Virus record (IMG/VR): IMGVR_UViG_2675903425_000026
Reading direction: 5' to 3' (one strand)
Length of the DNA: 5,072 bases
Source: a virus
Lineage: Duplodnaviria; Heunggongvirae; Uroviricota; Caudoviricetes
Shown here in pieces: positions 4,568-4,860 of this stretch. The translations under genes were made by a program, and so were the position numbers. Position 1 is the first letter of the stretch, and every line of letters begins with the position of its first letter. Below the pieces are notes generated by a model. It was not told where the DNA came from. It searched no databases and saw only the letters and a list, made by a program, of their open reading frames with translations.

Positions 4568-4768
4568 TTACTTCAGAAAGTCTCTGGTGAGTGCACCGAA
4601 GATATTGTCAACGATTTCGTCATCGAACTGCGAGGACTCATCTTCAGTTACAAGGTGACCACAATTTTTGCAGATGGCTCCCGCGAAACTGTCAGAGCCC
4701 TGCGGCTTAAAGGATGTGTCAAAGACTTCGCCACCACATTCTGGGCAAGAAAACTTGATTGTATTCAT
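4568..4768 (-). CDS. Small acidic zinc-ribbon protein (CxxC-N17-CxxC), function unknown
   Basis: ATG at 4768 with SD GAGAGGAAA (rc of about 4777-4786). 66 aa with CPECGG and CKNCGH motifs, then an acidic tail. Convergent with the paaR-paaA-parE operon. The track shows a TTG start at 4774. Confidence 0.6.
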   Translation of the reverse strand: MNTIKFSCPECGGEVFDTSFKPQGSDSFAGAICKNCGHLVTEDESSQFDDEIVDNIFGALTRDFLK

Positions 4769-4860
4769 AACCAATTTCCTCTCGAGTAACAGACCCCTCA
4801 GAGGATACCACCTCGCCTGACGTGGTTAAAAGCAGGCAACGCTAACCACAAGGAGCCGAC

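Follow-up and report, generated by a model that had tools for sequence, protein, structure and literature searches.

The window analysed here, a stretch of 5,072 nucleotides (nt) of a virus of the Caudoviricetes (IMG/VR record IMGVR_UViG_2675903425_000026), matches a lambdoid (Qin/dicB-type) prophage of Escherichia coli O157:H7 at 100 % identity, and contains two open reading frames (ORFs) which occupy opposite strands of the same bases. The minus-strand ORF codes for a putative zinc-ribbon protein of 66 amino acids (aa) and is nested entirely within a plus-strand ORF of 99 codons, or 118 codons where an upstream GTG is taken as the start. Comparison of the locus across four subfamilies suggests, with a probability of about 0.7, that positions 4433/4490-4789 form a conserved, mobile and two-sided coding cassette, in which both genes are protein-coding and subject to purifying selection. 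Taken singly, and judged by sequence comparison, the zinc-ribbon gene is almost certainly a real gene, and the plus-strand gene is very probably one.

Many temperate phages retain the nested pair. The plus-strand ORF is open in every inspected copy, amounting to approximately 190 loci in the four subfamilies, between which the zinc-ribbon proteins share about 30 % identity while all passing the NCBIfam model NF047912. Group A, to which this window belongs, was analysed as thirteen diverged DNA copies from E. coli, Klebsiella, Citrobacter and Enterobacter, the zinc-ribbon proteins of which are 59-100 % identical to that of the window. Group B includes Klebsiella and Enterobacter prophages and the coliphage HK639 (plus-strand ORF open in 37 unique blocks), and group C comprises Klebsiella phage KP12 and Brenneria (open in 19 unique blocks). 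The ORF is likewise open in the fourth subfamily, typified by Klebsiella phage 2b LV-2017, and a viral contig rich in guanine and cytosine (high-GC; L209) also carries the pair. In the wider zinc-ribbon family the partner was sampled in Enterobacterales, in the one high-GC contig, where it is present, and in one metagenome contig, where it is absent.

The zinc-ribbon protein (MNTIKFSCPECGGEVFDTSFKPQGSDSFAGAICKNCGHLVTEDESSQFDDEIVDNIFGALTRDFLK) incorporates the CxxC pairs C8/C11 and C33/C36 of a putative zinc ribbon, and is acidic in its C-terminal half. The initial annotation correctly described this 66-aa ORF with its acidic C-terminus and good Shine-Dalgarno sequence, as well as its orientation towards the parE end of the neighbouring operon, where it converges on the parE-type toxin gene. 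Of the motif given there, CPECGG-N17-CKNCGH, both cysteine pairs stand, but the spacer comprises 19 residues and not 17. Strong Shine-Dalgarno sequences (AAGGAGG, AAGAAGGAA or GAGGAG) are found at the same place before the zinc-ribbon ATG in all lineages. A profile search, as the initial annotation had proposed, matched the protein to NF047912 (the ECs_2282 family of putative zinc-binding proteins) with 57.3 bits, the cut-off being 37 bits (E=1e-15). The match covers model positions 1-56 of 60, and members of distant subfamilies attained 82.1 and 66.9 bits. The gene is annotated in O157:H7 by RefSeq through the Prokaryotic Genome Annotation Pipeline (PGAP), and the identical protein WP_001092153.1 bears the NF047912 name. 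Exhaustive searching with a zinc-ribbon protein profile yielded 81 clusters at 50 % identity, nearly all of them stand-alone proteins of 60-80 aa. Among 23 diverse family members (25-50 % identity) the four cysteines are the sole invariant columns, and the loss of cysteine pairs which had been named as counting against the gene was not seen. Close homologues whose reading frame is intact all have C8, C11, C33 and C36, while a frameshifted database entry (P0002) is without C33. At one group-B locus (L137) the fourth cysteine is replaced by serine (CANSGRE) with both ORFs otherwise intact, which may represent a sequencing error or a decaying allele.

Substitution patterns in the zinc-ribbon frame are those of a coding sequence. 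Among the thirteen group-A copies there are no insertions or deletions, the ratio of nonsynonymous to synonymous substitution rates (dN/dS) is 0.08-0.28, and parsimony changes at codon positions 1, 2 and 3 number 63, 24 and 101, respectively; the corresponding counts for 37 unique group-B sequences, an independent set, are 34, 16 and 81. The cysteine codons switch between TGC and TGT while the opposite plus frame flips between Ala and Thr. With a family score above the cut-off, PGAP annotation, third-position excess and low dN/dS, the preference of the initial annotation for the zinc-ribbon gene is upheld. That this gene can exist alone is evident from the metagenome contig Ga0302310_10028715 (L210), in which a family member 94 % identical to entry P0087 occurs and the partner gene is absent. 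There the zinc-ribbon gene is co-directional with, and follows, the genes of two predicted membrane-anchored proteins without a family match, a context unlike that of the prophage copies. Two zinc-ribbon domains within large membrane proteins of a Bacteroidota genome and of Rhizobium, picked up in a scan of genome contigs, were rejected from the family as unrelated.

The plus-strand ORF always runs 24-27 codons past the zinc-ribbon stop, up to a conserved start codon, over bases (4490-4567 in the window) whose opposite strand is untranslated. Within these N-terminal codons, plus-frame parsimony changes at positions 1, 2 and 3 number 32, 28 and 65 in group A (chi-square p=5e-5) and 28, 21 and 47 in group B (p=0.0035), and the plus frame is the sole frame open in all thirteen group-A copies. 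The extension contains a motif common to all subfamilies, L.[IV]D[AIT][ST], and represents the most confidently aligned segment in the hhalign comparison of groups A and C (probability 92.5 %, E=5e-7). Replacements in the plus-strand protein are conservative (I/V, R/K, S/T). Homology between lineages stops just upstream of the plus-strand start codon, and in this non-homologous DNA each lineage has its own well-spaced Shine-Dalgarno sequence, namely GGAGG, GGAGAGGAA, GAGGTGA, GAGGATGAG and, in Brenneria, AGGAGG. The alternative that the region beyond the zinc-ribbon stop serves as a terminator of that gene was rejected, as the hairpin is weak and the 3-nt periodicity speaks for coding.

The initial annotation had also recorded, accurately, a 118-codon plus-strand ORF (4433-4789) with a GTG start that fully covers the zinc-ribbon ORF, but described it as having no ribosome-binding site and no recognisable motif. 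A GAGGG Shine-Dalgarno sequence is located at 4421-4425, 7 nt ahead of GTG 4433, at which position a relative (L093) has ATG, and in the database sense the protein is recognisable, with a match to phrog_21318 over residues 20-118 (E=3.9e-67). Its opinion that only one of the two ORFs is likely to be real is not sustained, given a plus-strand ORF with a conserved start, a third-position-biased extension, Shine-Dalgarno sequences particular to each lineage and an intact frame in 83/83 E. coli-type copies, which is furthermore kept across subfamilies down to about 30 % identity.

In the overlap the two frames read exact reverse-complement codons, with position 3 of the zinc-ribbon codon facing position 1 of the plus-strand codon and the second positions facing one another. 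A plus-strand stop inside the zinc-ribbon gene thus requires a TTA, CTA or TCA codon in the latter, and the reverse applies likewise. When evolution was simulated along the branches of the group-A tree, with as many changes as the observed minimum and with selection on the zinc-ribbon frame alone, the antisense frame was open in all thirteen leaves in 0.07-0.23 % of runs (P ~0.001-0.002). Synonymous sites of the zinc-ribbon gene are fixed exactly where a change in the plus frame would be radical. The third position never varies in zinc-ribbon codons 36-42 and 44, Pro9 is CCA without exception (Trp in the plus frame), and the four invariant Glu codons, opposite F, F, F and L, are all fixed. The freely flipping zinc-ribbon codons, those for Asp, Phe, Cys and Gln, result in I/V, E/K, A/T and L/L, respectively, in the plus frame. 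Per-site change is slower in the overlap than in the extension, both in group A (0.96 vs 1.60) and in group B (0.63 vs 1.28). The plus-frame dN/dS within the overlap was computed but not relied on, because an exact reverse-complement frame is confounded by selection on the zinc-ribbon gene.

The two ORFs differ in how often they are broken. Among the E. coli-type copies the zinc-ribbon ORF is intact in 63/83, with a nonsense codon in the remaining 20, against no interruption of the plus-strand ORF. Nineteen of the twenty broken ORFs share a change of Glu14 from GAA to TAA, which ends the protein after 13 residues and merely replaces F with L in the plus frame. This allele occurs in locus L003 and in 18 IMG/VR loci (e.g. 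L067-L090), including PPompW prophages which accompany Stx2a phages. A second, independent nonsense change, of Glu44 from GAG to TAG (L091), is silent in the plus frame.

Several observations weigh against the reading of the locus as two protein-coding genes under selection. Members of the E. coli subgroup have a weak Shine-Dalgarno sequence at ATG 4490, and the periodicity of the group-C extension is weaker (22/9/24). The simulation leaves out codon bias against TTA, CTA and TCA, which makes the P value too favourable, and simple estimates from codon usage put the chance of an open antisense frame at 0.03-0.3 per lineage. The plus-frame selection signal in the overlap is confounded by the genetic code as well as by selection on the zinc-ribbon gene. 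As the zinc-ribbon gene is a pseudogene in about one quarter of the sampled E. coli copies, it is dispensable there. The AlphaFold2 model of the plus-strand protein, built from ten sequences only and in itself a point in favour of that gene, is of moderate quality (predicted local distance difference test (pLDDT) 69; predicted template modelling score (pTM) 0.51; helix-helix-helix-strand-strand-helix). Structure prediction of the 66-aa protein, also proposed in the initial annotation, did return a model, but one of low confidence (pLDDT 55) and with no informative fold match. Neither protein has an informative family, PDB or fold match, and a literature search on ECs2282, WP_001092153 and NF047912 found no paper on the locus.

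It is improbable that the zinc-ribbon gene alone is real and that the plus-strand ORF is a by-product of its avoidance of TTA, CTA and TCA codons, called as a gene for its length. Such a by-product would fit the lower dN/dS of the zinc-ribbon frame in the overlap, the fact that PGAP now annotates this gene alone, a per-lineage chance of 0.14-0.32 of an open antisense frame under E. coli codon usage, and a zinc-ribbon family that is far wider than the detectable plus-strand family and has a member without a partner (L210). However, it would leave unexplained the 24-27 conserved codons past the zinc-ribbon stop with their third-position bias in two groups, the conserved start codon and lineage-specific Shine-Dalgarno sequences, the N-terminal motif common to the subfamilies, the fixed synonymous sites of the zinc-ribbon gene, and the count of zero plus-strand disruptions against two independent nonsense events in the zinc-ribbon ORF, while the joint probability of openness in the simulation is only ~0.001.

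There is little likelihood, too, that the zinc-ribbon protein is the sole protein and the plus strand is kept for its RNA, as a leader or antiterminator of the leftward promoter (pL) or as an antisense regulator of the zinc-ribbon gene, with an incidental open frame. The region does lie directly downstream of a widely conserved leader, the putL-like antiterminator RNA annotated in HK639 overlaps the start of the ORF, and other lineages retain, with one G-U pair, the hairpin across ATG 4490 (GGCGCT-N13-AGCGCC). Nevertheless, constraint on an RNA would give neither a 3-nt periodicity with third-position excess nor conservative replacements, copies of the cassette are found in tail and baseplate operons as well, which lack the pL leader, and the leader folds no better than shuffled sequence. 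Highly improbable is the converse, that the plus-strand gene alone is real and NF047912 consists of mis-called shadows of an accidental antisense ORF: although curated phage records, including that of HK639, annotate the plus-strand ORF alone, this ORF is never broken where the zinc-ribbon ORF has stop codons in 20/83 copies, and its AlphaFold2 confidence is the higher, the changes in the overlap are more numerous at plus-frame position 1 than at position 3 (101 vs 63; 81 vs 34), the reverse of coding unless the other strand codes, the four cysteines are invariant in 23 diverged members with synonymous TGC/TGT variation, stand-alone zinc-ribbon proteins form 81 diverse clusters, L210 has the zinc-ribbon gene without the plus-strand gene, and a strong Shine-Dalgarno sequence precedes the zinc-ribbon ATG in every lineage.

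Table 1. Coordinates of the cassette, its flanking elements and the neighbouring genes in the 5,072-nt window
Feature	Position	Strand	Details
Replication genes, YdaT-family gene, Cro-like regulator		minus	Start of gene order
124-aa hypothetical protein	3271-3645		From RefSeq annotation/ORF list
RelB-type antitoxin and RelE/ParE-family toxin	3666-4137		parE-type toxin gene itself at 3859-4137
pL-like sigma-70 promoter	4222-4249	plus	TTGACT-16-TAAACT; consensus scan match
Leader, from pL-like promoter to plus-strand gene	4256-4432	plus	~175 nt
Terminator-like hairpin	4263-4281	minus	~290 nt past zinc-ribbon stop; consensus scan
Possible N-terminal extension of plus-strand gene	4433-4489	plus	19 codons from GTG 4433, giving a 118-aa form; kept within E. 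coli subgroup only
Plus-strand gene	4490-4789	plus	99 aa; phrog_21318; family-wide conserved ATG; holds whole zinc-ribbon gene in antisense
Plus-strand codons beyond zinc-ribbon gene	4490-4567	plus	26 codons; test region independent of zinc-ribbon frame
Zinc-ribbon gene	4568-4768	minus	66 aa; ATG 4768-4766, TAA 4570-4568; NCBIfam NF047912 member
Zinc-ribbon gene Shine-Dalgarno sequence	4775-4783	minus	GAGAGGAAA; 6 nt before ATG; read from sequence
Promoter-like element	4801-4837	minus	GCCTGCTTTTAACCACGTCAGGCGAGGTGGTATCCTC; -35 TTTAAC 4830-4825, 17-nt spacer, extended -10 TGGTATCCT 4810-4802
ydfC	from 4861		dicB, ydfD and an exonuclease gene lie further on, outside the window

The plus-strand gene of the window is the first ORF after a pL-like promoter and leader (Table 1). 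The hexamers of this promoter are identical to those of a divergent pR-like promoter at 3234-3205, with both facing outward, and an operator-like repeat, GTTTAGTGTTT, occurs at 3187, 3206 and 3245, with one-mismatch copies at 4209-4219 and 4231-4241. Because of the shared hexamers and the flanking near-copies of the repeat, the element at 4222-4249 is read, from consensus matches, as the repressor-controlled pL of a dicB-type operon. The repeats at 3187-3255 and 4209-4241, which overlap these two promoters, similarly look like the right and left operator (OR/OL) pair of an immunity region. The core of the leader (4300-4419; 120 nt) is present in 4060/5426 complete E. coli genomes, usually without annotation, and its equivalent in HK639 is annotated as a 'putL-like antiterminator RNA', the similarity between the two being patchy (56 % mean column identity). 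The leader gave no Rfam match, contains no boxA, which speaks against a nut site, and folds no better than shuffled sequence (z=0.87). It may function as a put-like antiterminator RNA (of the HK022 type), or else represent some other conserved element of the leader.

The zinc-ribbon gene appears to have a promoter of its own. The element upstream of it is kept across groups A and B, with the consensus GCCTGyCTTTTmACCACnTCAGGCkmGGTGGTATCyT, and recurs ahead of sieB (L100, position 1720) and of two unrelated small genes of 66 aa (L004, 2992) and 163 aa (L097, ~2984 on the reverse complement), as well as at position 2921 of L102. A Shine-Dalgarno sequence and a start codon always follow it at a distance of 25-80 nt, and the accessory genes downstream are reverse-oriented. 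The element can be read as a sigma-70 promoter with an extended -10, and looks like a portable promoter for 'morons', self-contained accessory gene units within prophages. Two interleaved 5-bp helices (CCUG/CAGG and CCAC/GUGG) are also possible within it.

A consistent rule of orientation holds among the copies, with the plus-strand gene always co-directional with lytic transcription and the zinc-ribbon gene always opposed to it. In HK639, gene 45 comes immediately after the putative pL and the putL-like antiterminator RNA of the annotation, and the plus-strand gene is also co-directional with the pL operon in the Klebsiella and Enterobacter prophages. The group-C genes of Brenneria and KP12 lie, co-directionally, between the spike (Apex) and the sheath-initiator and baseplate-J genes, and that of Klebsiella phage 2b LV-2017 between the tape-measure and distal tail genes, again in the same direction. 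In Brenneria roseae (L185) a canonical intrinsic terminator (GCCCCGGCATTCGCTGGGGC plus a T-run, ~3285-3330) follows the plus-strand gene in the middle of the late operon, as would fit a cassette that was inserted as a self-contained unit.

From this arrangement a working model of expression can be proposed. As the first ORF of a repressor-controlled pL (dicB-type) operon, the plus-strand gene would be made only in lytic growth, while the zinc-ribbon gene, with its own moron-type promoter and Shine-Dalgarno sequence pointing against pL, would be expressed in lysogens. Once the prophage is induced, transcripts starting at pL, or at late promoters where the cassette lies in a tail cluster, would silence the zinc-ribbon gene by collision and antisense pairing, and the same transcription would yield the partner protein. 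Expression in opposite life-cycle states, a life-cycle switch and an interaction of the proteins are pure inference. The promoter element shared with sieB, together with weak matches of three diverse zinc-ribbon family members (E=5e-5 to 2e-3; profile positions 18-80) to PDC-M14A, a defence candidate of PADLOC, points speculatively to a lysogen-expressed accessory or exclusion-type factor as the most likely role of the zinc-ribbon protein. That the cassette is a life-cycle toggle, in which a zinc-ribbon exclusion or defence factor of the lysogen is shut off by lytic antisense read-through and neutralised or replaced by the plus-strand protein, is a tentative and rather unlikely proposal. If it were true, the two proteins would be functional partners physically inseparable by recombination, and the phage would be spared harm from its own zinc-ribbon factor.

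The surrounding gene order, established in the plus-strand direction from the RefSeq annotation of the identical region and the ORF list, is given in Table 1. The 124-aa product of 3271-3645 has no Pfam match, and is read as a putative repressor on the basis of its position. Directly 3' of the parE-type toxin gene lies a near-perfect long hairpin (4156-4202; 22-nt arms, 3-nt loop, 82 % complementary), which may be a bidirectional terminator dividing the transcript of the repressor and toxin-antitoxin genes from the pL region. At 2725-2774, 50 consecutive N mask part of a 130-aa minus-strand ORF (2485-2877), which is classified as a YdaT-family protein by RefSeq in the identical genome.

Annotation pipelines disagree at this locus because two nested genes appear to share the same ~200 bases. 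RefSeq annotates the zinc-ribbon gene where phage GenBank records, such as those of Evi, 640R1, Stx2/PPompW and HK639 (HK639_45), annotate the plus-strand ORF. In NZ_CP033605.1 (L101) the zinc-ribbon locus tag EEL45_RS29725 stands between RS11150 and RS11160, which suggests a later RefSeq re-annotation that probably replaced an earlier call on the opposite strand. Entries of the plus-strand ORF as a 99-aa 'hypothetical protein' persist in NCBI (P0016; 163 member sequences, 277 contigs). With RefSeq/PGAP annotating the zinc-ribbon gene only, and phage records and PHROGs the other strand only, each of these resources is probably missing a real gene in thousands of genomes.

At the protein level the minus-strand product does not differ from NF047912, matching over the whole model with both CxxC pairs and a typical size. 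The description of that family does not mention a conserved partner on the antisense strand, and the searchable literature reports neither a function nor metal binding for it. The partner proteins belong to phrog_21318 and phrog_29546, clusters of predicted proteins which include gene 45 of coliphage HK639. The ORFs of subfamilies B and C match phrog_29546 with E values of 2.6e-8 and 8.9e-61, respectively, while the match of the window protein is weak (E=0.07). HK639_45 is itself a group-B member, situated right after a pL and putL-like RNA as in the window.

The Lar/Ral-type zinc ribbons (TIGR03655) and PDC-M14A are likewise small zinc-ribbon proteins of phages and prophages, but scores against them fall far below the curated cut-offs. 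The window protein attains 15.7 bits against Lar (E=0.014; cut-off 39.6) and those of subfamilies B and C 16.4-17 bits (E range overall 0.006-0.014), while PDC-M14A is a 152-position profile of a defence candidate; the matches to both are to be taken as leads and not as membership. The sieB gene of lambdoid phages is an accessory gene that lies close to the immunity region, is expressed in the lysogen and has a promoter of its own within the early-left region. The sieB gene of L100 has the upstream element of the zinc-ribbon gene in common and the same orientation against pL, but the two proteins share no sequence similarity. The sieB/esc pair is the source of the idea that a second product shields the phage against an exclusion factor of its own, although esc of P22, which is nested in sieB, begins at an in-frame internal start on the same strand and is not antisense.

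Long antisense overlaps of two protein genes are deemed very rare in bacteria and phages, and most proposals are disputed as expression noise or young ORFs. The published cases in O157:H7 are mostly short, young and taxonomically restricted ORFs in old host genes. Pairs proposed there by ribosome profiling include nog1/citC, laoB/ECs5115, ano/ECs2385, asa and pop/ompA (10.1101/2020.11.18.388249, PMC7457138). The present pair resembles these in having two opposite-strand proteins in the same organism group, of which standard annotation keeps one. Unlike those cases, the support here is comparative, the partners co-persist at about 30 % identity, the embedded zinc-ribbon gene is the more constrained of the two, and the unit is mobile among prophage positions. 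What appears to be new is a deeply conserved, mobile and fully nested antisense pair whose orientation to lytic transcription follows a consistent rule. As comparative evidence goes, that for this pair is unusually clean, in that part of the containing gene lies outside the overlap and can be tested separately, and the pair persists through deep divergence and in several independent genomic contexts. Together, the E. coli O157 prophages and the cultivable phage HK639 offer a tractable model for the co-evolution of two proteins on one DNA segment, in which it can be asked whether opposite-strand coding ties a lysogenic function to a lytic one.

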